A stretch of DNA of 63,539 bases, the filler included, from Reclinomonas americana ATCC 50394 (taxonomy: Eukaryota): assembly GCA_048213135.1 (NCBI GenBank). It is 9 parts of 6 records of this genome, joined end to end, with 100 filler letters (N's around TTAATTAATTAA, not from the genome) between each part and the next. Parts side by side here need not be neighbours in the genome. Positions count along the whole stretch, not along the records: positions 1 to 24,246 come from PS015259.1; 8 more parts are not named here. One strand, 5' to 3'. The notes beneath the pieces are model-generated. The model saw only the letters and a program-made list of their open reading frames with translations, was not told the DNA's origin and ran no database searches. Below are positions 9,801 through 62,454 of this stretch, piece after piece (positions within the stretch are counted from its first letter, which is position 1; the number at the start of each line of letters is the position of its first letter). A program made the translations under genes and the position numbers.

Positions 9801-10301
9801 CGCTGGTGCAGGAGGCCAACTTTCCTGCCGATTTGCTGTACGTGGACGATAGTGGATGGGATACGCCGGCCAATCACGGTGCGTGCCGTGCCTCCTCTGT
9901 CCCTTTCCGGCAGCTTTCTTCGTCTCACCTCCATGGCTGCAGTCAACTTGAAGTGGTTGTATGGGCACGCATTCACCGTGCTCGGCTACGAGCCCATGTT
10001 CTCCGACGTGGATGTGGCATTCCAGCAGGAGCCACTGCCCTTCCTGCACAAGCATTTCGCATTTGCGGCCTTTGATACCGTGTCGGGGCACGAGGGTGGC
10101 AACACAGCAGATCGCACGCTGCTGCATCGAGTGACATGGGATCCACCGCTGCCCGACTGGCAGGCACTGACCGACAGCACCGACCCGCGCACCGAGTACT
10201 GGAGTCACGGTTACGAGAATCGAGTGCGTGCTCCGTTCCGCCACTTGCCGACCACCTGTGTGGTGTACCCGCGTTGTCCCATGTTTCCGGTCCGTGCCGA
10301 C

Positions 10302-10341
<40 letters not shown>

Positions 10342-10460
10342 NNNNNNNNNNNNNNNNNNNNCGTACGTAGAAGTACGAGTGCGTCGCTCCGTTCCGTCCC
10401 ACCTTCGTCCGACCACCTCGTGTGGTGTCCGCGTCGTCCACTGTTCCGTCCGTCGCCGAC

Positions 10461-11149: not shown

Positions 11150-14100
11150 TTAAGTGCGCACACGCGGCTCAATCTTGAGCGACGCCGCAAATTGCTGATT
11201 ATCGTCCAGCACCGTCATCTGCGACGACGACAAGTGATGCAGCAGGTATTGCACCGGTCGAATGGGGTACGGCTGCTGCTGATACGTGCCAATCTCCATA
11301 ATGACCTTGGCAATGCGACGGCACTTGGCAAAGTTCACCATGGCCGTTCCGCGCCACGTATTTGGTGCACCGTCGTCGAGGAACACTAGATCCGTAAAGT
11401 ACAGACCAATGTAGGGGATGCAGGGCGGATCCACCTGCTGCAGATGCTGGCGCAGTCGGTACATGCCGTTGCGCGGCGACATGAGTTCGTCCAGCTCCTC
11501 ATGCAGCTGCACCACGCGCTTCGACATCAGCTCCTTGGTTCGCTTCAGACGATGTACAGCAGCTGAGGACAGGCCGCCCAGAATCTCGTGCACGCCGTTG
11601 AGGTTGTTCAGCGGAGTGCGGCAAAGCTGCGGGCGATATGGAAAGAGATAAGGGACATGGAGACAAAGGTGGAGAGGCACACAAGAACGATGACAACGCA
11701 CACAAACACAACATCATTTCATGTACACCCTTTTCTCACGCTCTTGCTCACATACACACAAGCTTCTCCACACTCTATCTTTCTCTCGCACACGGGCAAA
11801 CACACGGTTCTTCTTCTATGCAATCCTCTCGCTCCACGGAACACCAACTCACACGCATCCTCAAACACACACAAAAACTTCGCTCCATATCTCTTCTCCA
11901 CTTTCTCCACTTTCGCTATCGTTTCTCTCGCCCGCACACAAACACAGCACTTCACTTTGACATCCATTATCTCTCTTCCACACACAACAATTCCCTTCCC
12001 TTCAGCACACATTTCTTTTCCAATTTCAACCATGTCTTACCCTCTTCCCCATCACACCACGAACTCAGCTTTCCCTCTATCTCTACTTCAAACGCATAGT
12101 TATTCCCTCTCGCTATCATTACTCTCTCCACACACAGCTCTTCTCTGTCCATTCCCACCCTCCCCCTTTACCCCCTTCCCTTCCATTCCCCTCCCTCACC
12201 TGCGCAATCTCAATCCACTTGGACATGATCTTCTTACGACGAGCAACGTCGGGCTCGGTGACAATCGACGTCGCCACATAGCGCGACACCACGTTGAAGC
12301 GGTCAATCATGCGCATAATGTTGGGTGCCGAGTCGTACTTGTGCGACTTGGTCCAGCACTGATTCATCAACTCACGCGGCTGAATTCTTCTAAAGAGCGA
12401 ATACTCGACGAGCGTGAGCTGCCGTGCAATCTCCAATGACGGCCACTGGGACGAGACGAAACAATCAGCGCCCACCACCACAACAATACACAACAACAGA
12501 GCCATGGAACAGGAGGCGCAACTTGCAGCAGATTAAACGTCTGGTTCTGCGTGATGCGACTGCGCGGCAGCATTGGCTCCGGCGTCACCAGCTGAAGCGC
12601 CTGCTGCCAGTCCATGTCGCCACTCATGCCGCTGCCCACCAGCTGCTTGATAATCGACTTTTGCAGCTGCGCCGCGCCATTGCCGCGCAAGTGCGTGCTC
12701 ATGAACATGTCACAGAAGCGCGCGAGCCTCGCCACCAGCGTGCTGTCGAAATCGTAAAAGTGCTTGTCGACCCACGTGCGCAAGTTGTTAAACACACTGT
12801 GGCGGATGACAGGGTGATGAGTTCTTCGTCCTTCCTGCTCACGCAATGAGAATCACATCTCGCGCACGCACCGCAAACGGATTTGAGTCGTGATGCCGTC
12901 ATCGTTGCCGGACATTGCATCGGCGGCGATAAAGCGGAACAAGAGACCACGAAGCAGTTCGGCAGGCGGCGTGAACGAGCGGTACGTGAGGAAATAAACG
13001 GTGCGGTAGTTGGGATCTGCGATCCGGAAAAGAAGCCAGTCAGCAAAAATGCCTCCCTCACTCTGCTCTCTGCTTCATACTCTGCCGTCTCGACAACGTA
13101 CCCTGATTGCTCGGGCTGGTGATCATGTCAATCAGCTTCTCCACCGTGCCGGCACGGATGGAGGCGTTGGGCGAACGCGCCGCGCGCGCGACCGCAGCAG
13201 CAGGGGCGCCCGTGGGTGATCGTGGACCCGACTGCATTTTTCTCACAGGCGTGAGCATCGTAAACACGAGAGAGGGAACTCTATCTGTACGCACCTCTGC
13301 GGATGAGCTCAGCCCGTCGGCCGAGTCCGGAGTGGCATTCGGTGTCAGCGCAGATGAGTCGCTGCTCGACGCTGTGTCCACCGCTGCGCCAGCAGCCGGA
13401 GCAGCACCCTCATCGTCGCCCTCAAACAACAAGTTCTGGTCCGACTCGGGCTCGGCACTTCGAATCACTTCGCGTGCCGTCTCCACCTCCTCGTCGTACG
13501 ACTCGATGAGCACGGGTCCAGAAGCGGTACTGCAACACTTGTCGTGTGAGAAACACAACACCATCGCGACTGTGCAGATGATTCAAAACAACCGCAACTC
13601 CACCGCCGACTTGGTCACGCACTCCCAGATAAAGTCCTGCAGACAGCGCACATTGAAGCCGTCCAGTGCCGACACACTGCGCTCTGCTTGTGGCAGAATG
13701 ACGGTGCACAGCTCGGCGAACTTGGCCATCCACAAGTCGCTCGCTACCAGCGGCAAGCCCTCACCCGTCTGCAGGACACTGGAGTGTGAGTTCATGGACG
13801 GGTGAACGAATGGAGAGAAGCAAGGGGGGAACAGACCCGAATGAGAGCATGCAACACCACAGACAACTCTTGCGGCGACTCTTGCAGCGTCGGCAGCTTG
13901 CACTGGGAGAACACGGCACTGAACAGCAGCTTCCAGCTCCGTTGACCGCACTCGCGGGCCGCAGTGGCTGTTGCATTCGCACGATCATTGAGAACTCGCG
14001 CATGGGAGTCAAGGGGACGATGATGACGAAAGAGACGAAACGAGATGGACCAGCCGGAACAATGTACGGCGCGAAATGCAACAAGAAACACGGCACCGTC

Positions 14101-17100
14101 TGCGTAACAGCCCGCATCACAACGGTGCTGAGAATGTCCAACGGTGGTTGCGAGGACTCCATAGACCCGCTGCGAGAAAGGAGGGCGGAGGTCAGTCACG
14201 TGTCTCGCAGATGACATTTTGCCTTGCGTTCTCTCCCTCTCCCTCTCCCTCTCCCTCCCTCCCTCCCTCCCTCCCTCTTTCTNNNNNNNNNNNNNNNNNN
14301 NNNNNNNNNNNNNNNNNNNNNNNNNNNNNNNNNNNNNNNNNNNNNNNNNNNNNNNNNNNNNNNNNNNNNNNNNNNNNNNNNNNNNNNNNNNNNNNNNNNN
14401 NNNNNNNNNNNNNNNNNNNNNNNNNNNNNNNNNNNNNNNNNNNNNNNNNNNNNNNNNNNNNNNNNNNNNNNNNNNNNNNNNNNNNNNNNNNNNNNNNNNN
14501 NNNNNNNNNNNNNNNNNNNNNNNNNNNNNNNNNNNNNNNNNNNNNNNNNNNNNNNNNNNNNNNNNNNNNNNNNNNNNNNNNNNNNNNNNNNNNNNNNNNN
14601 NNNNNNNNNNNNNNNNNNNNNNNNNNNNNNNNNNNNNNNNNNNNNNNNNNNNNNNNNNNNNNNNNNNNNNNNNNNNNNNNNNNNNNNNNNNNNNNNNNNN
14701 NNNNNNNNNNNNNNNNNNNNNNNNNNNNNNNNNNNNNNNNNNNNNNNNNNNNNNNNNNNNNNNNNNNNNNNNNNNNNNNNNNNNNNNNNNNNNNNNNNNN
14801 NNNNNNNNNNNNNNNNNNNNNNNNNNNNNNNNNNNNNNNNNNNNNNNNNNNNNNNNNNNNNNNNNNNATCCCTCTCTCCATCCCTCTCGCTCACCTTCCG
14901 CCCGCGCTTACTCGTAGCCGATTCGTCACATTGCGCGAGGCACGTGAAGACTCGACAGGCGTGTAGAGCGCCTGATGCAACATGGCCGCAGCCTCCTCCG
15001 CCATTGCACGAATCGGGCCTGTGGCACTCGATGGCGCATCCACCGCGGCATTGGATGTCTTGGACACGAAATCGGCGACGCGAGCCGGGGCCGTCTGTTC
15101 CAGCAAGTGAGACACACAGACTTGAAGAATAACAAGTGTGATCATCAGGGCATGCGTGTAGACGCAACCGTAGCGGAATCCTCTTCGTCCGACGGCTGCA
15201 GCATCATGGCCGACACGCCCAGCGGCTTGCTGGCAGTTGTCACAATGCACACGCGCGCCAAATCCAGTGCCAGCAGACCAACAACGTCGCTAAACACCTC
15301 GTGTCTTGCAGTGTCCGGCGCCACACCACCGCGTTCGTACACGTCCTTCAGGGACACCACCTATTGCACAGAAAGGTCAGCGATGCAGAGTGAGCACACA
15401 ACAGAACGCCGAAAATGTACCTCGTCGACTTCCGCAGTGTTGGAACTGACAAAGAGCCGAATGGTGTGGTTCAGCAGGCGCAGCAGGCGACATACAAACG
15501 CGTATGGTCGACGACTCAGCCAGTCACTGCGATGCAGGCAGTCAGTCAATACATGGTTGAAAGGCGGTGTGCCAGCACGAAGAAAAACGCAACATAACAA
15601 ATTCCCGGTTCAAGCTGCGCAGCAGGTACACCGCACACAGCAGCAACTCCCGCTGGTCCTCCTCCGTGTAGAACTCGATCAGCAGGACCGAATCGATAAT
15701 CTATAGAAAGCGTGAGGTGATGGCAATGAAAAAAGACGCCAGCACCAGGCAATCAAACGCAACAGTGGACAACAGAGGCAAGTACATGGCCGCGAGACGA
15801 TGTCTTCCATCCGGCGTCTGATACTTCGAATCGAGGTCGTGCTGGCGGAAGAGTTGGCGCACAGCGGCGATTCCCTGTGGAAGGAATGAGTGCTGGGGGA
15901 ATAGAAGGAACGAGGAAGTAAACAACGAGATGCACACCAGCCGCCTCGTCTGCAACGTCGGCTCCTCCAACACCTGCACAAACACGGCGGAGAGCCACTG
16001 CGGCAGAGTCGGCAGAATCGGCTGCGGGTGCGTCGACTGCAGCGGCGCCGTCACCTGGATGCCGGACAAGTCCAGCAGGTACGGCACATCGAGCAGCACA
16101 CGCAGGAACTCCATGCGCATTGTCAGTGCGCACGCAGGCGGCGTCATCAGGGTAGCTGAGGGCAGAGGGCGCTCAGCATGTGGCGGAGGGCAGGTAGCAT
16201 TATCGAGAAGAAAAATACTCAACTCGTCACCGGGCCAATCACCGAGTTGGAGCGACCACGCGAGGCCGACGACATTGACTCGCCAGCGGCACCAGCGCTC
16301 GATGCATCGTCGACCGCGCGCTTGTCCCTGACACCGCGGCCCCACTGGAAGCCAGTGTTTTCCATAAAGGATGTCACCTGTGAAAAAGAGAGTCAGCGAG
16401 CGAAGGGGAAAGGGCTGGATTTCGAGTTGGCGGACGCACCAAATGCATGACAAACGACAGATCGACGAGGCCAATGAGATCGCGCACAAAGAGCGCCACA
16501 GCGCGCACCATCTCTGTGGCGGTGAACACGGACTTGGCGTCGTACGACTGGTTCTTCATCAAGTGGAACGCCTGGTGCGTGACACCCTCCAGGATCAACG
16601 ACACCATGTCCATCATGTCGGCCTCCAAGTCGTGTTCGTCGTCGTTCATCAATGCATCCTACGCGCACATAAACATCATCGGTTACGGATGCCTGGGTTG
16701 GAAACACCGCCGCTGCTACACATGACGCACATCATCCAGACGCAAGTCGCCAGATCCGTGACGGCTGCGGGGCGCACTTCCCGGCTGCGACTCGTTCCGC
16801 TTGAGGAACAAAATCAGGCTCTTGATGAGGATGTCCATGAAGAACCAGGTGAAGCGATTCAGGTCACCGAGAGCCTCGGTAACCAGCCGCTCCGACTCAC
16901 GGCGATCCTCTCCACGAATAATAATGGGCAATCGCGGCGTGTCGCACTGCGGAGAGCAAGAAAGAAACGCTTCAACACACAAAGAAAATAAAAGTGCGGC
17001 GATACGCACGGAAAATCACGAACCTCGGCCTCGAGCCGACGACCCACAGCCAGCATCTCAGCCTGCTGCTCCAAATCGGACGCCGTCGGCAGTGAGCGTG

Positions 17101-20100
17101 TGAATCGGTGCAGCAGCAAGGCGAACTCGATACGGCGTTGATTGGCGCGCTTGATCTCGTCGTCGTCTTCAAACTGCAGCAGCGAATGAAAGGGGAATAA
17201 GCATGTGATTTGACAACAAGGAGTCATCGAGGTATGATAATGCACGCAACGTTGACGTCTTCTGCAACCTCCTCCACGTCCTCCAACTCATCTGCATGAG
17301 TGGCCGACGACACGAGAGAACGCTCATCCTCCAGCGGCAGGTCAGCAAACGCGGAGCCAGCGGCCGGTGGCGGGCTGACCGGTGGTTCGTCGATGGCGGG
17401 AACGGCGTCGGCTTTGGTGCTGATGAGGCCACTGGAGGGACTGACCATCACGCGACTCACATCCGAGGCCAGCGATGGACTGGTGGCCGAGCGGAGTGTG
17501 GCCAGAGGCACGGAACTGGCACGACGAGCGAGGCGGGCACGCAGATCGTCAATGGCCTGCGGTGTGAACAGGTCGTCGTACGACAGCAGCTTCAGCCACT
17601 CCTCCATCAGCACCAAGTGGAACGGCCGCTCCGTGTCCATGCTGTCGAAAATGTACTGCACATACGACGACAGCAGCGTGTTCTGTCGAGTGCTGTACGA
17701 CAGCGACTGCACCACCGGATCTGCTGCGAACAGAAGAGGGGCCAGGATCAATGCAACGAGGAGAAAAAGTACGCTTCAACAATCACTGCTGCTGTTGCAC
17801 ACACACACCTGCCGACAATGACGAGGAGGACGCAGAGCCCAGCAACTGCCGGCGCGACGATGAAGTCAGCGACGCCGCAGACGGCAGAGTCGGGACCACA
17901 TTGTGCGTTGACACGCCACGCATCAGTCTGATGGACATGGCGAGGGCGCTCGAATCGTCACCACCCGAATCGGCACCTAATACACAACGCGCGCGTGAGT
18001 TCTCAGAGTCAGCAGCATCAACGCTCGAGTGGCTGCAATAACGCACCAGCCGAGGCGACAACGGTGCGACGCTCGCGCTGCATCTCGAGAGCCTTGGCCG
18101 ACTCGCGCAGCAGCGACAGCAAGGTGATGAAGCACGTGCGTTGCACATGGGAAACACTCTCCATGAACTGCGCAGTACAAATGAGAAGCCGTGGTGACGA
18201 CGACCAAAATAGACGGAGCGCACGCACCCGCTGTGATCCACGATCGGGAGGCGAGGCAGCCATGCGGGGCGCCGACAATCCAATGGCCACCGAGTGCCGT
18301 CTGGGCGACGGCTGACTCTCTCCGCCGCTGAATGAGCCGCGCGATGTGGGCGACGAGCCAAGTGCGTTGCGTGGTGAATCCGGCGATCCAGAGAGCATGC
18401 TGATCGGCGCTGCTCCCGCCGTCGGCGGCGATGCCAGTGCGTCAGACAGGCGCAATGGCGGAGTCGAGCCGGAGGGCAGAGAGTTGCGCGGCGAGTTGAG
18501 CGGCGAGTTGCGTGGCGACGACAATTTGACGGTCTCCGACAACTTCTCGGCGAGAGCATGCGTGGTGATCTTTTCCTCCACAGGCTTGGGCGCGGCCGCC
18601 GTGCCTGCGCAGAGCGAACACCAACATGGGGTGAGTGAATGACAATCGAGAAAGAATCAGCTTACGTGGCACACGAACCTTGCAACATGGACGTGAGCAG
18701 CGATGTCATTCGCTCCGGCGCCTTCTCCATCGAGACAAAGGTGGTCGATCTGCGCGATCCGCGGGGTGAAGAAGTGCCGCCAGTCGCTGCAGCAGCGGCC
18801 GCTGCCGTCGCTGCCAGCGGGTTCTGCTGCTCCGGCGTGCTCATGACAGAGTTGCTGCGCGGCGATTCCAGCGAGTCACCGGCAGTGCTGTGCGAACGCT
18901 CTCGCAGGCCGAACGAAAAACGGTGGCCCTGCACGAATCACATGAGCAACGACACATATAAAAAAGAGTGTGGCGCAGGTGAGCATGAATACTTACCGCG
19001 CTCTGGCGCGGCGATGCAGGTCCGCCTGCGCCACTGAGGCCGCGAGTCGGTCTCGGCTGCAACATCAGTGCACCGGCAGCACCGAGCGCACTCAGTGTGG
19101 GAGCATCGGTGGCCGAGCGCGGCGACGCAAGCGACGCCGAGCTGCCGCCGTTCGACTTGATCAGCGACATGGCCTTTTCCGAGGCACTGGCGGCTTGCGG
19201 AGCTGCGCACGGATGTGGAAGGGTGAGCGAAAATATACAAGCGCAGAATAATATGACACAGAGTGGACGCAACGCGAGGTCTGTTGCAGTGCCGCCAGAT
19301 TCAAGGCGGGCACGGGTGATCCCTTTTGCGAGCCGGGCGACGAGAGCGTTGGCGACGTCACTCCAGTCAGGTTGAGTGGCGGAAGGATCGGTGACCGCGA
19401 TTGCGCAGCGACGTTGGCGGGAGGTGAGAAGGCACTGGGCGATGACATGCCCAGTGGCTCCATGCCACCGCCAAAGCCACCACCGCCGCCAGAGCTGCCA
19501 CCTCCGTCGACCATCACCAGGCGAGGCACTTGCGCCATGGTTTGCAACAGCAGATTGAGAAGTACCTACGCCGCCAAGACAGCTTTGAGGAAGGAAGCAG
19601 GAGCAGGGTAGAAGTAAGTCAACATCCACGCAACGGGCAAGTATGGAAGCAGACGTGAAAAGTCGGCCTGACGCAGTCCACTCATCGTCTCGCGACATTG
19701 GCCCAGGGCGGCCTCCAGGAAACGCACATTGCGCTTGCCACGACTGAGCGGAGGAGCAAGATATGAGACGGCAATAGGAAGAGGATCGAGCACAAATCAA
19801 CGCACGTGAATTCCAGCGTGTCGAGAAGCGGAGAGCAGCCACTGTAGAACTTGTTGACCGAATCATCCTGCGGCTGAATGGTGCTGACGAGACGCGTGCG
19901 GCACGTAAACAGCTTGCGACCGCCAGCCACCACCGGACATCTGTGTGAAAGCATGTAAGAGACCACGCACAACCCCACGAGCACGCTACACACGAAACGT
20001 CGAGCGCGGTCCGTGCTCCATGTAACCGGAGAGGAGGCCGGTGTACACCTCCAACTCGTGCTCCTTGTCCGCAATGATGCCCTCCTCGAAAATGGGCATG

Positions 20101-23100
20101 ATGGAGTAACCCAGCAGCGTCTGCAAGTTCCATGAGAAACACAGGAGAAATAGGTGAAAAAAAGAGTCATTACGCGGGCAGCTGACCTTGGTGGCCGGCA
20201 CCAGCTCGTTGGTGCTCACAATGTTGCGGCGACTGCTAATGTTGTAGAACAAGAACAGGAGATGGTGCTTGCGCTGGAACGGCACCGGCAGGTTGACGCG
20301 GAATTCGTCAAAGAACTGCGGGTTGCGCACATTGTAGTGGACCTCCGACTGCGCCATCGGGCAAAACTTGGGCGAGCCGTGCTTTGTGCGGAACGCACTC
20401 AGTGTGCCAGGCAACAGCTCGTCGCCGCCACCGCCCGATGGTGACGGCGGTGCGCCACTGCCATCGCTCCCGGCCAGCGATCCAATCGGGTACGGCAGGT
20501 CATCCGTGTCGCGCAGAATGGCCTGTGCGTGCGCGCGGAAATGAGGTGTGGCGCTGAGATTGCAGCTGGTGCATGTCCGTGCACACTCACCCTCACGAGG
20601 ATGTTCCGTGCATCGCGCACACCGCCAAACCGTGCCACCAACGGGTACACAAAGAGTTCGTGCTGATACGTAAAGTACGGTGTGCGCGGGATGCTGGTGG
20701 GAATCTCCTGCACCAGTGTGTAACTGCGCAGCAGGCGCTCCTCGTACCTAATCACCGCGGAAGGTCGTGGACGATGTGAGCGCGGATGATAATTCAGAGA
20801 TCTAACAATGACGCAACAGGAAACGCTGGTACAGCATTTGCTGCTCGTCGCGGCGACTCTTCTTGGCCAGCTTTCGCAGCGCTTGCTGGGCCTGATCGCA
20901 CACTGATGTAAGACACAAGCTTGACCATGATGAGCATTCGCCGAAATGTGGAACGCACCCTGCCACGCGAGACAACGGCGCCGTCGTCCTCCGCCTCGTC
21001 CTCGGTGGCGGAATCCGAGTCGTCCGAGTCGTCTGCCGCAGCGTCGGGAATGGATGAACCGTTCGCCGACCTGGCGGTTGACTTGCGACGCTTGCGCTTC
21101 TCCTCAGCATCGAGGTCGGCCAGTGTCGCGTCATCAATGTCGGCGGCGATTGGACTGAGGGCGGAGGAGTGCGGTGAGTCCATGGAAGGGAGAAAGAAAG
21201 GAGGACGAATCATGGGGGTTCACGCAACGTGACGCTGAGTGCAATGTGGCCGGGAATCATGCGGAGGTGCATGTCGGCATTGCCCGAGTTGATGTACTCG
21301 CAAAAGTCGAACGGGCGTGATTCGTCCGAGGCCGGAACCTGAGAGGCAGTCGATTAGCAAGGAAAAGTAATCTTGCACGCATACACATTCTTCTTCGTGG
21401 ATCGGCAGTCGCGTGCGCGCGCGCGCGCTCTCTCTCTCTCCCCTCAAAGAACGCTGATTCTCACCTGATACAACGGCCGCAGACGAATGTAGCCCTTGCG
21501 CATGTGCAACCGTTCACCCGGCGACGTGCCCTCCGACGAAATGTCCATGGTGGCGAAATCACGATCCTGCGTGCGACGCGACGCCAGCTCGGCCTCGCGA
21601 TGAAAGAGCGGCAGCGCGGTCCACACAAAGGGCTCGCGGTAGTCGCCGTACTGAATGCACACCTCGCGTGCCTTCAGGCGTGCCATTCTGTTGCATGCGA
21701 GTGAGATTGGTCTTCACCCGAAGAAGCAAGACAACAACAATAACCGCCGCAACTCAGATGGCACAAAGTTCTTGTCCTCGGCTGCCAGCCGCACGGACGT
21801 GTAGGGGCGATGCGTGGTGCTCTCGGGTGCACCCTGCAGCACCTTTTCCACCCACATCACCAGCGCCACTGCGCGGAGGGGGGGGGGGGGGGGGGGGGGC
21901 AGGGAGGGGGGAGGGAGGAGGAGGTGGAGGAGGAGGGAAGGGGGAGGGAAGGGAAGGAAGGGAAAGGGAGAGAGGAAAGGGGAGGAGGAGGAGGAGGAGG
22001 GAGGAGGNNNNNNNNNNNNNNNNNNNNNNNNNNNNNNNNNNNNNNNNNNNNNNNNNNNNNNNNNNNNNNNNNNNNNNNNNNNNNNNNNNNNNNNNNNNNN
22101 NNNNNNNNNNNNNNNNNNNNNNNNNNNNNNNNNNNNNNNNNNNNNNNNNNNNNNNNNNNNNNNNNNNNNNNNNNNNNNNNNNNNNNNNNNNNNNNNNNNN
22201 NNNNNNNNNNNNNNNNNNNNNNNNNNNNNNNNNNNNNNNNNNNNNNNNNNNNNNNNNNNNNNNNNNNNNNNNNNNNNNNNNNNNNNNNNNNNNNNNNNNN
22301 NNNNNNNNNNNNNNNNNNNNNNNNNNNNNNNNNNNNNNNNNNNNNNNNNNNNNNNNNNNNNNNNNNNNNNNNNNNNNNNNNNNNNNNNNNNNNNNNNNNN
22401 NNNNNNNNNNNNNNNNNNNNNNNNNNNNNNNNNNNNNNNNNNNNNNNNNNNNNNNNNNNNNNNNNNNNNNNNNNNNNNNNNNNNNNNNNNNNNNNNNNNN
22501 NNNNNNNNNNNNNNNNNNNNNNNNNNNNNNNNNNNNNNNNNNNNNNNNNNNNNNNNNNNNNNNNNNNNNNNNNNNNNNNNNNNNNNNNNNNNNNNNNNNN
22601 NNNNNNNNNNNNNNNNNNNNNNNNNNNNNNNNNNNNNNNNNNNNNNNNNNNNNNNNNNNNNNNNNNNNNNNNNNNNNNNNNNNNNNNNNNNNNNNNNNNN
22701 NNNNNNNNNNNNNNNNNNNNNNNNNNNNNNNNNNNNNNNNNNNNNNNNNNNNNNNNNNNNNNNNNNNNNNNNNNNNNNNNNNNNNNNNNNNNNNNNNNNN
22801 NNNNNNNNNNNNNNNNNNNNNNNNNNNNNNNNNNNNNNNNNNNNNNNNNNNNNNNNNNNNNNNNNNNNNNNNNNNNNNNNNNNNNNNNNNNGGCAGGGAA
22901 GGGGGAGCAGGGTGAGTGGCAAGGGGGAAGGCGAAGGGGGGAAGACGGAAGGAAAGAAGGAAAAGGGGAAGGAGAGAAGGGGGCAGGGAGAAGGAGGAAG
23001 GGAGAAGGGGGAAGGCTAAGGCAGGAAGAACAAAGAGGAGAAGGAGAGGGCGGGATGATCAAAAAGGAGGAGACGGAAAGGGGAAGGCGAAGGGAGAAAT

Positions 23101-24246
23101 CGAAGAGGGAAGACAAGGGGAAGACAGGAGAAGAGAAAGTGGAGGTTGAGCAAGTGGCAAGAGGATAGAGAAGGCAAGCACCATGGAACGAAGACCGGAA
23201 CGAGATGAATAGAATGTGCTGCTATACGTCCTCCCGCCTCTCTCGCTCTTCATCTCCCTCTCACACACACCTGCTGGATCGGGATTGGTCAGCGAAAAAA
23301 GAGCCCGTGCCACCGACGGTGATCCCGAATCGCGACCAAACTCAAACGCCGTCTGCTGCGCCCCGCTGCTGGTCGGCAGCAAAGTGTTCAGCGAACGCGC
23401 ATTGAGTTGGAAATAAAAGGTCTCCGACAACTTGGCCCGGGTCTTGATGTTGTACAGAGCGAGTCCACAAAACATGGGCTCCAGATCACCCGCCTCGAAC
23501 CACAGTCGGTGCGCCGTGACGACAAACTTGGTGGCACTGCAGCGTCACGCGACCACCAACATTAGAAGATCTCCACGAAAAAGAAAACTCACACATGCTG
23601 ACGCGGACGCAACGCCTTGAGCGGATATGGCGGCACCAATTGGCGATGGCACAGCTCACGCTCGGCGCCACCATTCCACTCCGTGTTGCCGTCAAACAAC
23701 TCAAACACTGGTCGCGAAGAGGTGGCCTGTGGCGAGAGGAGATGAGAGGCGAAGAATGAAGAGAGAGAGAGAGAGAGAATGCTACGCAGGGAGAAACGCA
23801 CCGACTGGAGATCCACAGACTTGTACTTGTTGGTTTTTCTCCGCACGACTTTCCACTCGCCACGAAATAGCCGGAAGCTCTCACGAACGGGTGGTGGCAG
23901 CAGTTTCGGGTCGACATTCTGCAGCAGATAGAAGGGGGCGGTGAGTCTCGCAGGATGTCACAAGAGAATCGACAATGCCGACGGAACTGGAAACTGAAAG
24001 TTCTTGATGGGCATTGGCCGCTCCTCAGCCTCCACCACAATCTTCTCCAACGTGGCGCCGAGAAGGCCCTTGTCTTGAGGTCTTTCGGTGGTGGTGCGGT
24101 CACTGGACAAGTGAGAGAAGAGTGAGAGGCGAACACAATAAGAGCGCGTCTCAATCCGAGAAGAGAGAAGATTCAAGGGAAGAAAGAGGGAGAGACAGGG
24201 CGCGGGAGAGAGAGAAAAAGAGGATGGTCGCGCAAGAACCTCCAAG
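11150..24246 (-). CDS. DOCK-C/D (zizimin-like) scaffold with DHR-1/C2 and ARM region, followed by C-terminal RasGEF_N (REM) + CDC25 RasGEF domain; 5' end truncated
   Basis: DOCK motifs LEPMFCGLALYNIKTRAKLSETFYFQLN, YREPFVWTALPLF, HELFVYP..RNILVRV, SEVHYNVRNPQFFDEFRVNLP..KHHLLFLFYNIS and LFRQHDLDSKY..LAAMYLPLL. RasGEF motifs IRAGTVEKLI, FLTYRSF, EIARQLTLVE, NNLNGVHEI, PPCIPYIGLYFTDLVFLDDG and VNFAK..SLKIEPR. Confidence 0.85.
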
Positions 24247-24346
24247 NNNNNNNNNNNNNNNNNNNNNNNNNNNNNNNNNNNNNNNNNNNNTTAATTAATT
24301 AANNNNNNNNNNNNNNNNNNNNNNNNNNNNNNNNNNNNNNNNNNNN
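24247..24346. other. Artificial scaffold linker
   Basis: N44-TTAATTAATTAA-N44 with stops in all six frames. The same linker occurs at 32353, 39510, 45167, 53205, 57986, 60518 and 62301. Confidence 0.97.
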
Positions 24347-25455
24347 TCAATGTCGGCGGCCAGGCGCATGGTCGGCTTCATAAAGTCGAGATTGCCGTGC
24401 TCCTCTTGCTTCTCCAGCAACTCGGGCCGCGCGGCCCACGAGCTGCAAAAGCACAACGGCGTGCAGCAGAGGAGGAATATGGCACTGCACGGTGGTGATG
24501 AGGCAGAGGAAGGGAGAGAAGAGAGCGAGAGGCAAAAAAAAACGCACCACTGCACAAATCTTATCTGTCGCGCGAGGCTGTTTGCTCGCCGCTGCGTGCA
24601 GTCGGCGAATTGTTGGCGGATGAGCGTGTCGTCGGCCTCGGCCGTCACCGCCAGCCACAATTCGCGCTGCTCCACGCGACCCATGGCCGCCGACAGCTCA
24701 CCGCCGCGCACCTTGTCCCACAGATCGGCCACGTACTNNNNNNNNNNNNNNNNNNNNNNNNNNNNNNNNNNNNNNNNNNNNNNNNNNNNNNNNNNNNNNN
24801 NNNNNNNNNNNNNNNNNNNNNNNNNNNNNNNNNNNNNNNNNNNNNNNNNNNNNNNNNNNNNNNNNNNNNNNNNNNNNNNNNNNNNNNNNNNNNNNNNNNN
24901 NNNNNNNNNNNNNNNNNNNNNNNNNNNNNNNNNNNNNNNNNNNNNNNNNNNNNNNNNNNNNNNNNNNNNNNNNNNNNNNNNNNNNNNNNNNNNNNNNNNN
25001 NNNNNNNNNNNNNNNNNNNNNNNNNNNNNNNNNNNNNNNNNNNNNNNNNNNNNNNNNNNCCCCCGTGTCGAGGCACAGCGCCGAGTTGGACAGGTCGTAG
25101 ATCACGAATGAGGGTGTGGAGCGGTCGCGACGGTGGGCGTCGCGTTGGGCGATTGCGTTTTCGGCGATCCGGCGGAGAACTGCGGGGAGGGGGAAGGGAG
25201 GAGTAAGGGGAAGGGAGGGAGGAGTAAGGGGAAGGGAGGAGAAGGAGGAGGAGGAGGAGGAGGAGGAGGAGGAGGAGGAGGAGGAGGAGGAGGAGGAGGA
25301 GAGGGTGAGAAAGTGAGAGCAGAGCAAGAGAGGAGGTGGAGGAAGAGGAGAATGGGAAGAAAAGGAGAAGAGGAAGAAGAAGAAGAGCAACGACGACGAC
25401 AACAACGGCAGCAGCAGCAGCACAACAGGAATGCGAAAACATAACAACAACAACT

Positions 25456-25538
<83 letters not shown>

Positions 25539-26639
25539 GACAACAACAATAACAACAACGGCAGCAACAGCAGCAAGAGGGAACCGAAGAAGAAAGAGAA
25601 AGAGGAGGAAGGGAAGAAGAAGTTGATGCAGGAAAGAAGTTGATGAAGTGAAGGAGAAGAAGAAGAAGAAGACAAGGAGAATAAGAGGAATGAGGAGACG
25701 AAGAACAACAACAGCAACAACGAAGCAGGAGCAGCAGCAGCAAGAGAAAAACGGAGAAGTAAGAGACAGAGGAGGAGGAGGAGAAGACGATGACGGAGGA
25801 GAAGAAGAAGACGACGAACAACAACAACAACAACAACCACTGCAACAAGAGGAAGCTGAAGGAAAGAAGGCAGAAGAAGAAATCCAAACGAACCATGTTC
25901 AGGCAGCTGCACCGTCACGCCGTCGGCGTACCAGAACATCTGCAGTCAAGAGTTCAGCGCTGCCATCTTGCATCCCTACACAGAAACGTGCGAGCCACAC
26001 CATGCCAGTGCGAATCGTGTCGGTTGCTTGCTGCTGACCCTGCCCGGCGGTCGCCGAGAAACCGACCATCGTGGCCTCGTCCAGTCTCGCCAGCGCGGTC
26101 ATCACTCCCTACACCGAGGCGAGTCAGTGCCTGCTCAACGGCGGCAATGCGTGATACAAGGGCACGCAACAGCAGGCGGCTTGCGATAGGCGCGCGCTGT
26201 CAATTTCACACCCGTGCGCATGAGTCGCTGCGTGAGCCACTCCACCTCGCTCGTGCCGGACGGACGCTGCTCCAGACCGTCCACACGGTACTCCTCCGGC
26301 TGCATGGCTTCGACGGCGGTCGGAGTGCGTGGAGGCACCAGCATGTTGAGAATGAAACTGGTCAGGTTGTGCCACGATTGGATCTCGCGCGTGTGCGGGA
26401 TGCAGGTCGTGCGGTGTGTGCCACGCATTACGGCACGCATCTCCTCGTCTGCGGGTTCTGTGGAGCGGGAGGGTGGAGCGGTGCGGGCGGCCACTGCGGA
26501 CATCCAGTGTGCTGTGGCAGCAAGGGGAGTGAGGTGGGAAAGAGAGAGAGAGGCGGAAGAATGCGCAGATCGAACCGGTTGTGGGAGGGGGAGGGGCAGA
26601 GTCGCGGTCGCCCATACGCTGGTACACGGTGTCTGACAT
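24347..26639 (-). CDS. Hypothetical multi-exon protein, 3' end truncated
   Basis: Exon chain MSDTVYQ|PHWMSAV..RKPPA|GVMTALARLDE..|MFWYADGVTVQLPEH|VLRRIAENAIA..|YVADLWDKV..MRLAADI. No family recognised. Confidence 0.55.
25185..25880. repeat. Compound intronic microsatellite (GAG)n/(CAA)n/(GAC)n/(GAA)n
   Basis: Visible trinucleotide runs lying between two exons of the minus-strand gene. Confidence 0.9.
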
Positions 26640-27103: not shown

Positions 27104-28100
27104 CTAATGTGCCTCCTGGTCCCAGTGCACAGCCTTGCCCGTCGCCAGAGACCACGCTCGCACAGTTTTGTCCCTGCCACCACCTACGACGTGCTGTCCG
27201 TCGGAAGTGATGGCGACGCAGCTCACCCATTTTGTGTGTCCCTTCAGGCGTCGCACTTGCTGGCCACTTGCCAGCAACCACACACGCACTGTATTGTCGG
27301 TGCTACCAGTCACAACGTACCGACCGTCGGGGGTGACGGCGACAGAGTTCACACTCTTGCTGTGCCCCTCCAGTCGACGCACTTCCTCACCACTCTCCAG
27401 TGACCAAACTCGTGCTACGCTCTCACTACTCCCACTGATGATGTGCTGACCGTCGGGAGTGACGGCGACTGACGACACCCATTCCCGGTGTCTCTCCAAC
27501 TGTCGCATCTCCTTGCCACTCGCCAGGGACCACACTCGCAGAATGCCGTTGCTGCCACTCACAATGTGCTGACTATCGGGGGTAACGGCAACAGCGTACA
27601 CGCCGTCGGCGTGTCCCTCCAGTCGTCGCACTTCTTCTCCACTCGACAGAGACCAGATACGCACGGTGTTGTCTCCGCTGCCACTGACAAGGTGTTGGCC
27701 GTCTGGAGTGATCGCGACAGACAGCACAGGCTTGGTGTGCCCCTCCAGCCGACGCACTTCCTCTCCACTCGCCAGAGACCACACTCGTATCGTTGCGTCG
27801 TAGCTCCCGCTGACGACGTGCTGGCCATCGGGAGTGACAGCTGCACAGGTCACCCCCTAGGCGTGCTTCCCGAGTTGTCGCACATCCTCCCCAGTCGCCA
27901 ACGACCACACATGCAGAGTGCCGTTCTCACAGCCGCTCACAACGAGCCGGCTGTCGGGAGTGATGGTGACGGATTCGACTGCGACCGCGTGTGCCTTTGA
28001 GGACGACGCCCCCTGCACGAACATGGTGAAGCAAATGAGCAGCAGCAACAGCAGTGTGGAAGGAGGTGCAAGAGCGCACTTTCGATGATGATGAACCCAT
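27104..28100 (-). pseudogene. WD40-array gene (~7 repeats) with MGSSSSK N-terminus and an in-frame TAG at 27857-27859
   Basis: A 21-nt first exon (28100-28080) splices to a long exon of ~42-aa repeats GH..V.SVAVTPDGQH.VSGS.D.TVRVWSLASGEEVRRLE. The reading is GKHA*GVTCAAVTPDG. Confidence 0.72.
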
Positions 28101-28754
28101 TTGTCGCAGCGCGCGCGCGCCTGAGAGCCGAGGAGTGCATGCTGTGGGACACTTCTCGCAACAATGCGACAATATCCGGTCAGGCCTCTTGCGGCAGAGT
28201 GCAGGCGACGTCTGTGGTTGATGGCACAAGGTTGTTGCTGATGGTTTTGCGCGGAGAAAACATGCAAATGTACACTGTGCAGCAAACGGGTTGAGAATAC
28301 TGGCGGACATGAACATCTGAAGCACTCACTTGAAGCAGCGCTGCAGCGATGAACCTGCTGATCGCTACAAGCGGCGCTCAGACACCGCACCAAGGAGTCG
28401 TGCTGCCCGTCAACACTGATTGCACCATCGAAGTGCTCACGAGGCTGAAGTCAAGCCGCTGGGTATCAGCGGAGTTTGCGTCCGCCGTACAAGCATGCTG
28501 TCGCTCTCCTTCAACATGGAAAACCCCGTGCACCGAGAAGTGAGTGCCAGAAGAGCACAGACAACTCACAAGAAACTCGGGAACGTGAGCGCCAGAAGTT
28601 TGGCATCACAAGAGAGCCTGCTTCCAAAAGCAGCCCAACTTAAAGGAACGGGTCACCATCGACCCAACATGTAAGAATCATCAAGTTTAGTATTCCTCTG
28701 AATACAAACAGACAAACAAGCTAGAGCACTACCTCACTCTTTGCCGGCATAAAC

Positions 28755-32331: not shown

Positions 32332-32882
32332 TCTCTACTGTGTAGCGCTTGCNNNNNNNNNNNNNNNNNNNNNNNNNNNNNNNNNNNNNNNNNNNNTTAA
32401 TTAATTAANNNNNNNNNNNNNNNNNNNNNNNNNNNNNNNNNNNNNNNNNNNNGTGTGTGACAAGCCAGGACTCTTATTTGCGTGAAGTTGCAAGTCCACC
32501 AACTCACGCGCATGCGACCTAACTAGCCGGACAGTAGTGATAATTGCAGATGCCACTACGAAGGCGAGAACAGGCGCACGAAAGTCGAGCATACGTTGGT
32601 TCTCTGAAGCTTGTATTTCACGAGCAGAATACAGATGCGTGAAGAGCAGAGAGGAAAGTCACAGGGTGCAACGACTGAGTCGTGGGGTGACCTGTCGAGA
32701 GTCAAACAGCAAGGACAGGAGCCTCTCCTCGAGATGAGAACCGTGATATCTCCGGCTGAATCAGCAGCCGCCACATTCGAACACCTGATGAAGAGAGCCG
32801 TCCCCTCCGCTGCTGTCCATTCCCCTCTAAGCAGAGCCCACAGAGTACCCGTTTGGAGAAAGCATAACCTATACTCCCTCAA

Positions 32883-33910
32883 CTACCGCCCCACTGACAC
32901 CGCCGGCGCCGACAAGCACGACACAATCAACTTGGCCCTCTTCCCAATGACCCGATCGTCCTTGTTCAACTTGTCCGAGCCCTCCTTCTTCGCCTTGGAA
33001 TACCGGCCTGCCGCCGCCGATGCATCCTGCAGCAACCTCTGGATACAAGCACACCCACACTCTCAATCAGCACCACGCAGCAAGCACCTCTGCACACACT
33101 CGACATGCACACAACCTGTCGAGCCACTCCCTGCATCGACGCCAGATACTCCAGCGCCACCGCAAAGTCGCTCTTGCCCAGCACATGCTTGTCATACAGA
33201 TGCTTCACCAACTCCTTCTGCTCACACGCACGCAATCGGCCAGTAAGAAAACAACGGGGGCGCCCCGACGAGTCGATGATGTGAATGTGCACATGGCGCA
33301 AGCAAGCACCTGCAGCAACTTGTTGAACTTCCACGACGCCCGTGCGGTCTTCCACTGCAGCACGTACTGCACCGAGGCCTCCACTGCATCGCCACACGAC
33401 AGTGAGCGGCATGCACGCACACACGTATGTGACAAAACGCAACATCGCTTTCGTCGTTTCTGCTCCCGCTCATCCTCATCGCCCCCCTTGTCGCCCTCGC
33501 CCTCACCCTCCTTTTCCTTCTCCTTCTCCTTTTCCTCCTCGTCCTCCCGGATCGCCTCCAGCCTCCTCCTCTCTGCACACACACACATACATCAGTCATC
33601 GCCACGCAATCAAGATCGTGGAGGAGATGACGCAACTCTTGCGCAGCTGGTCGCGCTTCTTCATAAACTCCTTCCGCATCAGCTTCTTCTCCTCTGGCGT
33701 CATGTCTGGCCTCTCCTTTGCCTGCTCCTCCTCCGCCATCTCTGCATCCTCCTCCTCCTTCTTCAGCTTCTCCAACATCTCTTCGGCCTCCAACTCGTCG
33801 TCGGCCTTTTCCTTCTTCTTGTGCTTCTTGCTCTTCTTCTTCTCCTCCTCTACTGCAGGTTCATCCTCCTGCTCCACCACCTCCTCCTTTGACTTGGACT
33901 TCTTTGGCAT
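32883..33910 (-). CDS. WKF-domain (DUF2373/C7orf50-like) protein
   Basis: K/E-rich N-terminus, then QYVLQWKTARASWKFNKLLQ, LVKHLYD, LEYLASMQGVAR and KRAKLI. Confidence 0.82.
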
Positions 33911-34175: not shown

Positions 34176-35360
34176 TTAGTAGCCCTCCGGGGTGGCGGTG
34201 TCGAAACCAGCCGGGGCCTGGTACTGGCCAGCAGAGCCCTCCCAGGTGTTCGAGGCATCAGCCCAGTCGCTGCTGCCAGCGTACGCGCTAGCATCTACGT
34301 CAACATAGAGAAGTCAGACGTTTGACGACACCTTTCGAGGATGTGTAAAGAAAGACGAACCGACAAGAGCGTGAGCGTCGACCTCCTCGAAGCCGGCGGC
34401 GGCGGCGGCACCCTCGGCCTCAGCCTGAGCCTTCTCCACCTCTTCCGGATCACGGTAGAAGAAGAGATCGGCCTGCACAACACAACAATGAGAGGAGAGA
34501 AAGAAGAGGAGAAGACTCTTCATCATCATCTCGTCACCTTGACGTCCCACGGGATGGCGCGGGAGACACCGCCGCGCAGGCGGAGGACCTCACGGGTCAG
34601 GAACCAGTAGAGGATACCGACCGAGTTCTTGGCCTTGTTGTTGCACGGGATGGCCACATCGACGTACTCCATCGGCGAGTCACTGTCGCAGAAGGCAATG
34701 ACCGGGATGTTCATGTAGGCCGCCTCGAGAATGGCCTGGTGGTCCATCTTCGGGTTGGTCACAATGATCAGGCGCGGCTCCGCGAAGCGCTTCTGGATCT
34801 GGTTGGTGAAGGTACCAGGAGTGAAGCGACCAGCCAAGCTAAAGAGAGAAGAGTGATGAGAAATGGCGAGATTGCTGAATGAAGAGAGGGTGGAGTGAGA
34901 CGCACTTGCTGGCACCAGTGTAGTGCGAGAACTTGAGCACGGCGCGCTGGCCCCAAGTGCCGGCGGCAATCGCGCACACATCAGCCGGGTTCTGCGTGTG
35001 TGAGTGTGAGTGGACATGACTCGCTCGCTCTTCTCTCTCTTCATCAAACAAACCTCAATCGACACAATGATGCGGGCAGCGAGCATCAGCTTCTCCCACG
35101 TGCGGCCGAGGTGGATGATGTTGGCGCCTGCGTGGTGGAAAGGGGGAGGGAGGCGCACATGTCATGTGCATGTCGCTCACCATGTCACACACACTCTCTC
35201 ACACACAAAGCTACGCACTGTCGGCACGCTGGTTCCAGATGTAGCGGGCCATCTGCGACTCGCACTTCTTGGCACCAATGTGCACCTGGCACGCCATCAA
35301 GCGCTGAATGTCATCTTCCGTGGGCGCAAGCACACGATCTCCGTTGGACGCAAGGCTCAT
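34176..35360 (-). CDS. RPSA: 40S ribosomal protein SA (uS2)
   Basis: [48 protein letters not shown] and [10 protein letters not shown] over six coding exons. A probable 5'UTR intron lies at ~35385-35455. Confidence 0.98.
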
Positions 35361-39509: not shown

Positions 39510-39609
39510 NNNNNNNNNNNNNNNNNNNNNNNNNNNNNNNNNNNNNNNNNNNNTTAATTAATTAANNNNNNNNNNNNNNNNNNNNNNNNNNNNNNNNNNN
39601 NNNNNNNNN

Positions 39610-45108: not shown

Positions 45109-45266
45109 GTGAGTGAGATAGGCGTCAGGACCGCCTTCACCATTTTGGCTGATTGTGTGCGTTCGGNNNNNNNNNNNNNNNNNNNNNNNNNNNNNNNNNN
45201 NNNNNNNNNNTTAATTAATTAANNNNNNNNNNNNNNNNNNNNNNNNNNNNNNNNNNNNNNNNNNNN

Positions 45267-53074: not shown

Positions 53075-53451
53075 GAGGAGGAGGAGGAGGAGGAGGAGGA
53101 GGAGGTGTGCGACGCGCGACGAACGAAGAGAGTAGAGACGCACGACGACGGAACGAACGAACGACGCGGCGACGCGACCGCCGACGTACGACGACCGCCG
53201 TACCNNNNNNNNNNNNNNNNNNNNNNNNNNNNNNNNNNNNNNNNNNNNTTAATTAATTAANNNNNNNNNNNNNNNNNNNNNNNNNNNNNNNNNNNNNNNN
53301 NNNNGAGAGAGAGAGCGCGAGAGGGGGAGAGTGAGAATGGATACAGAGAGACGAGAGACAGAGAGAGAAAGAAAGAACAGTCTGCATATATCACAAAACA
53401 GATCCAAGCGAATACCGAGCGAGTGAGTCACCGCACGGAGAAGCACTCACC

Positions 53452-57985: not shown

Positions 57986-58085
57986 NNNNNNNNNNNNNNN
58001 NNNNNNNNNNNNNNNNNNNNNNNNNNNNNTTAATTAATTAANNNNNNNNNNNNNNNNNNNNNNNNNNNNNNNNNNNNNNNNNNNN

Positions 58086-60517: not shown

Positions 60518-60672
60518 NNNNNNNNNNNNNNNNNNNNNNNNNNNNNNNNNNNNNNNNNNNNTTAATTAATTAANNNNNNNNNNNNNNNNNNNNNNNNNNN
60601 NNNNNNNNNNNNNNNNNCGCTCGCCTTTCACGACGAACTCACCCACGTGTTTGTCGCTCTCGGCGTGCACAG

Positions 60673-62300: not shown

Positions 62301-62454
62301 NNNNNNNNNNNNNNNNNNNNNNNNNNNNNNNNNNNNNNNNNNNNTTAATTAATTAANNNNNNNNNNNNNNNNNNNNNNNNNNNNNNNNNNNNNNNNNNNN
62401 CAATAGCGAGAGAACGAGCGAGACAATGTGCCGTCATTCTACAGTATTCTTTCT

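Follow-up and report, generated by a model that had tools for sequence, protein, structure and literature searches.

A DOCK-type scaffold combined with REM and CDC25 domains in place of DHR-2 in a predicted protein of Reclinomonas americana and its relatives

In this paper we describe a locus of Reclinomonas americana ATCC 50394 whose predicted protein joins a DOCK-type scaffold to the catalytic module of a different superfamily of GEFs (guanine nucleotide exchange factors). The window, by which we mean the whole analysed stretch of 63,539 nucleotides from assembly GCA_048213135.1, is GC-rich eukaryotic draft sequence. Its minus strand from about 24.1 kb to 11.15 kb represents, with a probability of roughly 85%, a single multi-exon gene; the residual doubt comes from 585 unsequenced nucleotides within it and from a continuity that is modelled from DNA sequence. 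The protein is composed of an N-terminal DOCK region, a DHR-1/C2 domain, a long helical scaffold, a poorly conserved linker and, replacing DHR-2, a REM and a CDC25 domain, and we would expect it to act as a DHR-1-targeted Ras-type GEF. The architecture is old and shared by a family of proteins, and is not peculiar to the R. americana genome. Members of this family are already found in public databases under uninformative names, and the family appears to be undescribed.

Our identification of the domains is based on the translated stop-to-stop open reading frames (ORFs) of the minus strand between 11 and 24.7 kb, 50 of which were scanned with Pfam. Meaningful domains were found in five of them, namely DOCK-C2, RasGEF_N (a strong match and a weak continuation) and RasGEF (twice), with DOCK-C2, RasGEF_N and the complete RasGEF on the same strand and in the expected order. 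A Pfam scan was one of the checks proposed in the initial annotation of this locus, and it returned these three domains and no DHR-2 lobes. Two further rows, DUF5529 and MIT_LIKE_ACTX, fell below the cutoff and were taken as chance matches. None of 21 plus-strand ORFs within the locus has a Pfam match, and no plus-strand ORF reaches an independent E-value (i-E) below 1 with either the family profile or the canonical DOCK profile described below.

At the C-terminal end the RasGEF_N and RasGEF matches between 13.2 and 11.15 kb bear out the earlier claim of complete REM and CDC25 domains. The REM domain is spread over three exons at 12524..13231 on the minus strand. RasGEF_N (PF00618) is matched over profile positions 19-79 in the ORF at 12853-13074 (E 2.4e-7, 31.4 bits, cutoff 28.3) and continues weakly over positions 69-101 in 12367-12852 (E 0.0023, below the cutoff). 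Positions 1537-1670 of the family profile map to 13020-12523, and a motif at 13168-13106 aligns with the start of the REM domain in the family. The CDC25-homology RasGEF domain (11150..12445 overall, minus strand) is encoded by two exons, 12445-12200 and 11626-11153, which are separated by an intron of 573 nt (GTGAGG...CAG), and a stop codon at 11150-11152 closes the frame. Positions 1-78 of the 181 in RasGEF (PF00617) are matched in 12119-12532 (E 9.9e-26) and positions 83-181 in 11150-11713 (E 2.5e-27). When compared with the 240 residues of the RasGRF1 structure 2ije, the exons cover residues 6-84 (E 1.8e-15) and 87-239 (E 1.3e-30). The similarity ranking in PDB starts with RasGRF1, followed by SOS1/2, yeast Cdc25, RalGPS1, Epac2 and the RasGRPs; the nearest counterparts of the CDC25 domain are RasGRF1/SOS and not the Rap GEFs.

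Six relatives are identical in many columns of REM and CDC25, which, together with the near-complete matches, speaks for a functional Ras-type GEF, its activity and substrate being predicted from similarity; lipid binding by DHR-1 is likewise expected by analogy with the DOCK family. It might be asked whether the architecture is intact and the protein nevertheless a scaffold only, with the CDC25 domain a pseudo-GEF relic or with a DHR-1 that does not bind lipids. Both activity and lipid binding are deduced from whole-domain similarity, which leaves some room for this explanation. We consider it unlikely, given that nearly the whole length of the Pfam profile is matched by the CDC25 domain at strong scores, that almost the full RasGRF1 catalytic domain is matched and that the invariant columns of the six members suggest purifying selection.

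The same architecture is found in other eukaryotes. A search of the C2 exon against 1.84 billion representative proteins resulted in 83 matches at E<=0.001, none of them above 46% identity, and we scanned 21 of these with Pfam, comprising all long ones and the two best fragments. Five of the 21 combine DOCK-C2, RasGEF_N and RasGEF without DHR-2 (P0003, P0008, P0021, P0038 and P0061), seven have DHR-2 lobes and the remaining 9 are C2-only or truncated; among the proteins longer than 1500 aa, the three that score best all belong to the RasGEF type. P0008 is the Willaertia magna protein KAL9650385.1, annotated as 'hypothetical protein', P0021 is Andalucia godoyi ANDGO_07803 (EukProt), automatically named 'Ras guanine nucleotide exchange factor J', and P0061 is called 'son of sevenless-like protein'. 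The search for this architecture among proteins, suggested in the initial annotation, has therefore yielded relatives that include W. magna and A. godoyi. A word-based search with the whole of P0003 gave 61 matches, mostly ordinary RasGEFs, with the combined architecture in P0003 and P0090 only. Three relatives are single ORFs on short contigs, P0003 with 2100 aa on 6750 nt, P0090 with 2114 aa on 6919 nt and P0085 with 1784 aa on 6616 nt. As the ORF nearly fills the contig in each case, these proteins are uninterrupted from C2 to CDC25 without any stitching of gene models.

All six family members that we compared with the window, its nearest homologues, carry DOCK-C2, RasGEF_N and RasGEF according to Pfam, and a DHR-2 lobe is found in none of the six, neither by Pfam at E<=10 nor with a DHR-2 profile. 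This agrees with the original proposal that REM and CDC25 stand in place of DHR-2. The window is colinear with these proteins over their whole length. With tblastn, residues 57-2098 of the 2100 in P0003 map to 24131-11162 on the minus strand without any break in the order, the same is seen with the other members, and the identity in the aligned pieces is 27-53%. A profile built from the six members gives eighteen matches in order, from position 88 to position 1906, in minus-strand ORFs only. The relatives from W. magna and A. godoyi and the 'son of sevenless-like' protein share this domain order and lack DHR-2; they differ in that the linker of the window is longer, with acidic and Ser-rich insertions, and in that the window copy is broken by two assembly gaps.

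In an unrooted maximum-likelihood tree built from the C2 region (20 rows, 375 columns), all five RasGEF-type proteins share one clan with the window at support 95/94, no DHR-2-type protein lies inside it, and the window is sister to the protein of the jakobid A. godoyi (91/85). This grouping would fit an architecture that arose once. The family forms a separate branch and is not nested among the sampled canonical or PH-bearing DOCKs. The tree also bears on whether a DOCK part and a RasGEF part from different loci could have been misjoined over the gap during scaffolding, as the 34 N runs of the window point to a poor assembly. Such a misjoin seems very improbable to us. Chance would need to hit on the same strand, order and spacing as in the architecture seen in six independent proteins, and the C2 of the window sits in the RasGEF-bearing clan, so that a RasGEF tail is what we would expect for this gene.

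For the DOCK-like part of the protein we built a profile of 1807 positions from 8 canonical DOCKs. Its positions 101 to 1047 map in order to 23900 down to 15596 of the window, in minus-strand ORFs only, and the last 760 positions are without a match in the window ORFs. The N-terminal region, DHR-1/C2 and scaffold thus follow the DOCKs colinearly, as had been claimed. The conserved region furthest upstream lies at 23790..24131 (minus strand) and weakly resembles the N-terminal region of DOCK-C/D: residues 57-139 of P0003 align with 24131-23814 (tblastn E 1.2e-6), family profile positions 88-126 with 23915-23790 (i-E 0.014) and canonical profile positions 101-137 with 23900-23790, the last being a weak match (i-E 0.16). 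Homology can be followed up to 24131, and gaps lie at 24247-24346. Further N-terminal exons before DHR-1 are found at 23275..23714 (minus strand; family profile 249-328, i-E 2.2e-13; canonical profile 249-324, i-E 2.8e-13), and these also match residues 269-377 of P0003. An assembly gap of 884 N at 22008..22891 then falls between residues 377 and 578 of P0003, and part of the N-terminal exons is probably lost in it. On its other side another exon with DOCK homology precedes DHR-1 at 21459..21680 on the minus strand (positions 366-442 of the family profile, i-E 9.8e-6, and 362-404 of the canonical one, i-E 5.5e-6).

DHR-1 itself occupies about four exons at 19629..20752 (minus strand), over which the family profile has four colinear matches at positions 530-809. 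DOCK-C2 (PF14429) is found in the ORF at 19986-20747, the domain lying at about 20.4-20.0 kb (E 1.8e-16, 61.1 bits, cutoff 33.6), and a PDB search with the C2 exon yields the DHR-1 of DOCK8 (E 6.4e-7) as well as residues 600-649 of DOCK6 (E 3.1e-5). It is followed by exons of the helical, ARM-like scaffold at 15581..18167 on the same strand, with six colinear matches to family profile positions 882-1324. Canonical profile positions 751-1047 map here to 17694-15596 in order, and the exon 15704-16240 aligns with residues 1039-1182 of DOCK6 (E 0.036, PDB search). A search with P0003 region 870-1700 returned 4 matches only, the best non-family match to the scaffold being a DOCK7-like protein, and a word-based search with exon 15701-16240 found none at E<=0.001 among 1360 candidates with sizes up to 2000 aa.

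The closest known counterparts of this part are the zizimin-type DOCK-C/D proteins (DOCK6/7/8), with which the N-terminal region, DHR-1/C2 and scaffold are homologous and colinear over about 1100-1270 residues. The initial annotation had assigned the protein to DOCK-C/D. The best matches, to DOCK8 and DOCK6 in PDB and to a DOCK7-like protein, agree with this, but we can keep it as a best-match resemblance only, since the family has its own branch in the C2 tree. PF11878 (DOCK_C-D_N) is below threshold in three of the six relatives (best E 0.03), and none of the six has a PH domain in Pfam. In precomputed Pfam lists, PF28208 is common to P0003, P0090 and canonical DOCKs. The difference lies at the other end of the protein, where DOCK-C/D proteins have the DHR-2 lobes A, B and C, and the family has none and ends in REM and CDC25.

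DHR-2 was searched for in several ways. Pfam at E<=10 detects no lobe in the interval from 13.0 to 17.8 kb (14 ORFs), of which 585 nt are unsequenced, and a profile restricted to DHR-2 reaches a best i-E of 3.6 over 1593 window ORFs, when it detects all four canonical DOCKs outside the profile at 1e-48 to 1e-174. An hhalign comparison of the family with the 8 canonical DOCKs gives a probability of 100% (E 7e-97), aligning residues 257-1527 of P0003 with residues 245-1365 of the DOCK7-like protein P0150, and the default run has no second significant match beyond residue 1365 or so. Lobe A of DHR-2 lies considerably later in comparable DOCKs of 2087-2172 aa, at about 1614-1690 (Pfam). The family is therefore without recognisable counterparts of the last 275 or so scaffold residues and of the whole of DHR-2. 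This places the apparent end of DOCK homology about 275 residues ahead of the DHR-2 start of canonical DOCKs, well before the point at which the initial annotation had put the exchange of domains. The swap would accordingly be better described as one of late scaffold and DHR-2 for a short divergent linker, REM and CDC25. A vestigial lobe A in the linker was considered and rejected, as the 185-residue family linker (P0003 1528-1712) on its own matches canonical DOCKs with a probability of 0.4%. We also disregarded, in favour of the default run, an hhalign run with -mact 0.1, in which the alignment was over-extended through REM and CDC25 without real similarity.

The stretch between the scaffold and the REM domain needs most interpretation, and it contains the second assembly gap. 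By our count this gap comprises 585 N at 14283..14867, and not 586 at 14283-14868 as first annotated. The same GA-rich low-complexity repeat is found on both of its edges, and, when read on the minus strand, donor-like GTAAGC and GTGAGC motifs come before it and a pyrimidine tract with CAG after it. An enumeration of GT and AG sites found a frame-compatible junction that spans the gap, with the donor end at 14895, the acceptor start at 14169 and a nominal intron of 725 nt. The gap thus lies probably in an intron. Draft-scaffold gap sizes are estimates, and a DHR-2 of about 450 residues, which needs more than 585 nt, could be hidden here if the gap were far larger, making the protein a DOCK with DHR-2 and an additional C-terminal Ras-GEF. 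We give this hardly any credence. None of the six relatives has a DHR-2, and the DOCK homology is over at about 15.6 kb, some 700 nt ahead of the gap and well short of where DHR-2 would begin. The edges of the gap are intron-like. Moreover, only about 235 residues of the relatives separate the last DOCK-type match (15596) from the first REM match (13017), corresponding to 2.6 kb of window with the gap, and this interval is already exceeded by the visible exons of the window.

Putative exons of the divergent linker can be modelled on either side of the gap. Those before it, at 14896..15526 on the minus strand, are open frames with frame-compatible GT-AG introns of 60-74 nt, and their sole homology is a non-significant match at 15522-15403. 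Those after it, at 13296..14169 on the same strand, form an in-frame GT-AG chain of four exons that includes an acidic and Ser-rich stretch. Frame-compatible GT-AG introns join every exon from 16135 to 11153, the gap included. Apart from the gap-crossing intron, the modelled introns are 60-125 nt long besides the one of 573 nt, and the recurring donors GTGCGT and GTTGCG are also those of introns pinned by domain homology. Codon-usage log-odds, trained on 1313 homology-supported codons, range from +0.18 to +0.54 when the four post-gap exons are read in the frames proposed for them, and are negative in all others; before the gap they are likewise positive in the proposed frames only, with +0.26 to +0.95 in three of four pieces and a value near zero, +0.015, in 15139-14900. 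The first exon past the gap had been said to resemble the late ARM region of DOCKs loosely. We could not reproduce this resemblance, finding no Pfam match at E<=10, no significant match to the linker hidden Markov model (HMM) and, for the family linker, no similarity to the DOCKs, so that this stretch is coding-like by codon usage without detectable homology. Of the spliced post-gap peptide, which scores 2.9 bits against the family linker, only a pre-REM motif at 13513-13412 can be aligned, and as high a score was reached by 3 of 500 shuffles.

Several observations weigh against a single gene and are best considered together. Splicing and continuity over 15.6-13.0 kb are a model, in which one mRNA would run through the locus and cross the gap within an intron whose content is likewise modelled, and the 585 N of the gap are unsequenced. 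The exons at 15.5-13.5 kb have no significant match to the family linker HMM, the best ORFs reaching E 0.75, 6.1 and 12, and there is a chance plus-strand match of E 1.3. The linker model has about 385 residues compared with about 210 in P0003, and this excess may reflect lineage-specific acidic and Ser-rich insertions or some included intron. An in-frame ATG at about 14161, right after the gap, could be the start of a separate RasGEF gene. Finally, the census of the family is small, with 6 proteins and the window.

These points could be taken together to suggest two neighbouring genes on the same strand, of which a DOCK-like gene that lost DHR-2, or never possessed it, terminates within the gap or close to it and an independent RasGEF gene starts after it, for example at this ATG. 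Such an arrangement would account for the lack of significant homology to anything at 15.5-13.5 kb, and the continuity of a single mRNA belongs, as said, to the model. We nevertheless regard it as quite unlikely. All six homologues carry both parts in one protein, three of them as the uninterrupted ORFs on short contigs described above, and their order is kept in the window on either side of the gap. Open, coding-like frames with compatible GT-AG junctions continue from the scaffold to REM, and this exon chain also includes the pre-REM family motif, upstream of REM. The six homologues, the end-to-end colinearity and the C2 clan together make a hidden DHR-2, a misjoin and a second gene all unlikely, and a single gene encoding the DOCK-like part and the REM and CDC25 domains is the explanation we prefer.

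A comparison with known exchange factors shows how the family differs from each of them. It shares the complete C-terminal REM and CDC25 domains with Ras GEFs of the CDC25 family such as RasGRF1, SOS1/2 and yeast Cdc25, but its N-terminal part is a DOCK scaffold with DHR-1, in the place where SOS has DH-PH and histone folds and RasGRF has PH, IQ and DH domains. DOCK4 retains its DHR-2 and is without a CDC25 domain. It is reported as a Rap1 activator, PMC6974517 mentioning Rac1/Rap1 activation by DOCK4, so that a DOCK-type scaffold is tied to a Ras-subfamily GTPase in this protein as well; in our family the link to Ras would run via a bona fide CDC25 module instead. PMC10152721 characterises DOCK proteins by their catalytic DHR2 domain, with DHR1 binding PI(3,4,5)P3, and by this definition a DOCK-C2-RasGEF protein would strictly not be a DOCK GEF. 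A survey of RhoGEFs in 175 genomes gives DHR1/C2 and DHR2 as the conserved core of DOCKs, to which no more than one SH3 or PH domain is added (PMC5499878). In the GEF reviews and surveys searched, the combination of a DOCK scaffold with CDC25 was not found. The literature search as a whole, whose scope excluded most subscription journals and the supplements of PMC5499878, found no description of a DOCK-C2 and RasGEF protein.

The surroundings of the gene contain further features. Beyond its 3' end lies a convergent gene on the plus strand that resembles nucleotide-diphospho-sugar transferases (9801-10370, E 1.6e-4). Just upstream of its presumed 5' end, about 0.8 kb of low complexity at 25100-25950 reads as codon repeats on both strands, which give V, L, S, T, N, E or D stretches depending on the frame, and may be a promoter-proximal repeat or part of another gene. 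Eight pairs of 44-N runs with 12 bases between them (24247-24346, 32353-32452, 39510-39609, 45167-45266, 53205-53304, 57986-58085, 60518-60617 and 62301-62400) look like an artefact of sequence joining and not like biology. GA-rich microsatellite borders many of the other gaps and shows up as RERERE or GEGEGE in the ORF translations. On the minus strand there is a WD40 beta-propeller gene at 27107-28450 (PF00400, E 9.9e-68; six of its repeats lie in 27107-27856 and one more in 27860-28450), a WKF domain split over two ORFs at 32969-33591, and an exon of a uS2/SA ribosomal protein at 34529-35161 (Pfam E 9.2e-14; top PDB matches 7ase, 5opt and 4v8m at about 1e-52). These three structures are trypanosomatid ribosomes, which lead by a small margin; taken with the sister position of the A. 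godoyi protein in the C2 tree, they weakly suggest a discobid lineage. The minus-strand ORF 49808-50215 has a Peptidase_S74 match above the cutoff (E 3.7e-7), an intramolecular chaperone of endosialidase which, to our knowledge, is unusual in eukaryotic nuclear genes outside MYRF-like factors. A MORN repeat is found at 38085-38495 on the plus strand and a sub-threshold Ependymin match at 55737-56324 on the minus strand.

If the protein works as its domains suggest, DHR-1 and the scaffold would, by analogy with DOCKs, put it on phosphoinositide-rich membrane, where the C-terminal CDC25 domain, stabilised by REM, would act on a Ras-subfamily GTPase by opening its nucleotide pocket. A lipid signal whose normal effect is the loading of Rac or Cdc42 would then load Ras instead. 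A further-reaching proposal, which we offer tentatively and regard as doubtful when all its parts are taken together, is that the protein is a direct phosphoinositide-to-Ras GEF, that it forms a feedback loop within one protein and that it is an ancient DOCK paralogue built on a portable chassis. DHR-1 might read PIP3 or PI(4,5)P2 and CDC25 might load Ras on the same patch of membrane, giving a positive feedback from Ras via PI3K and PIP3 to the DHR-1-RasGEF and back to Ras. Loops of this type are postulated for excitable Ras/PIP3 waves in amoeboid migration. The paralogue would then date at least to the common ancestor of jakobids and heteroloboseans. If this is true, the DOCK scaffold would be a portable membrane-targeting chassis which is not bound to Rho GTPases.

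The family breaks the rule of a fixed DHR-1 and DHR-2 core, as about 1100-1270 residues of scaffold are found with the catalytic module of another GEF superfamily. It also has consequences for annotation. Names like 'hypothetical protein', 'son of sevenless-like' and 'RasGEF J' mask the DOCK part of these proteins, and counts of DOCKs by C2 matches alone would miscount Rho GEFs. The family furthermore offers a natural experiment on the role of the DOCK scaffold apart from DHR-2. If its DHR-1 still reads phosphoinositides, amoeboid and flagellate protists would have a simple means of coupling lipids to Ras, and not to Rac or Cdc42.

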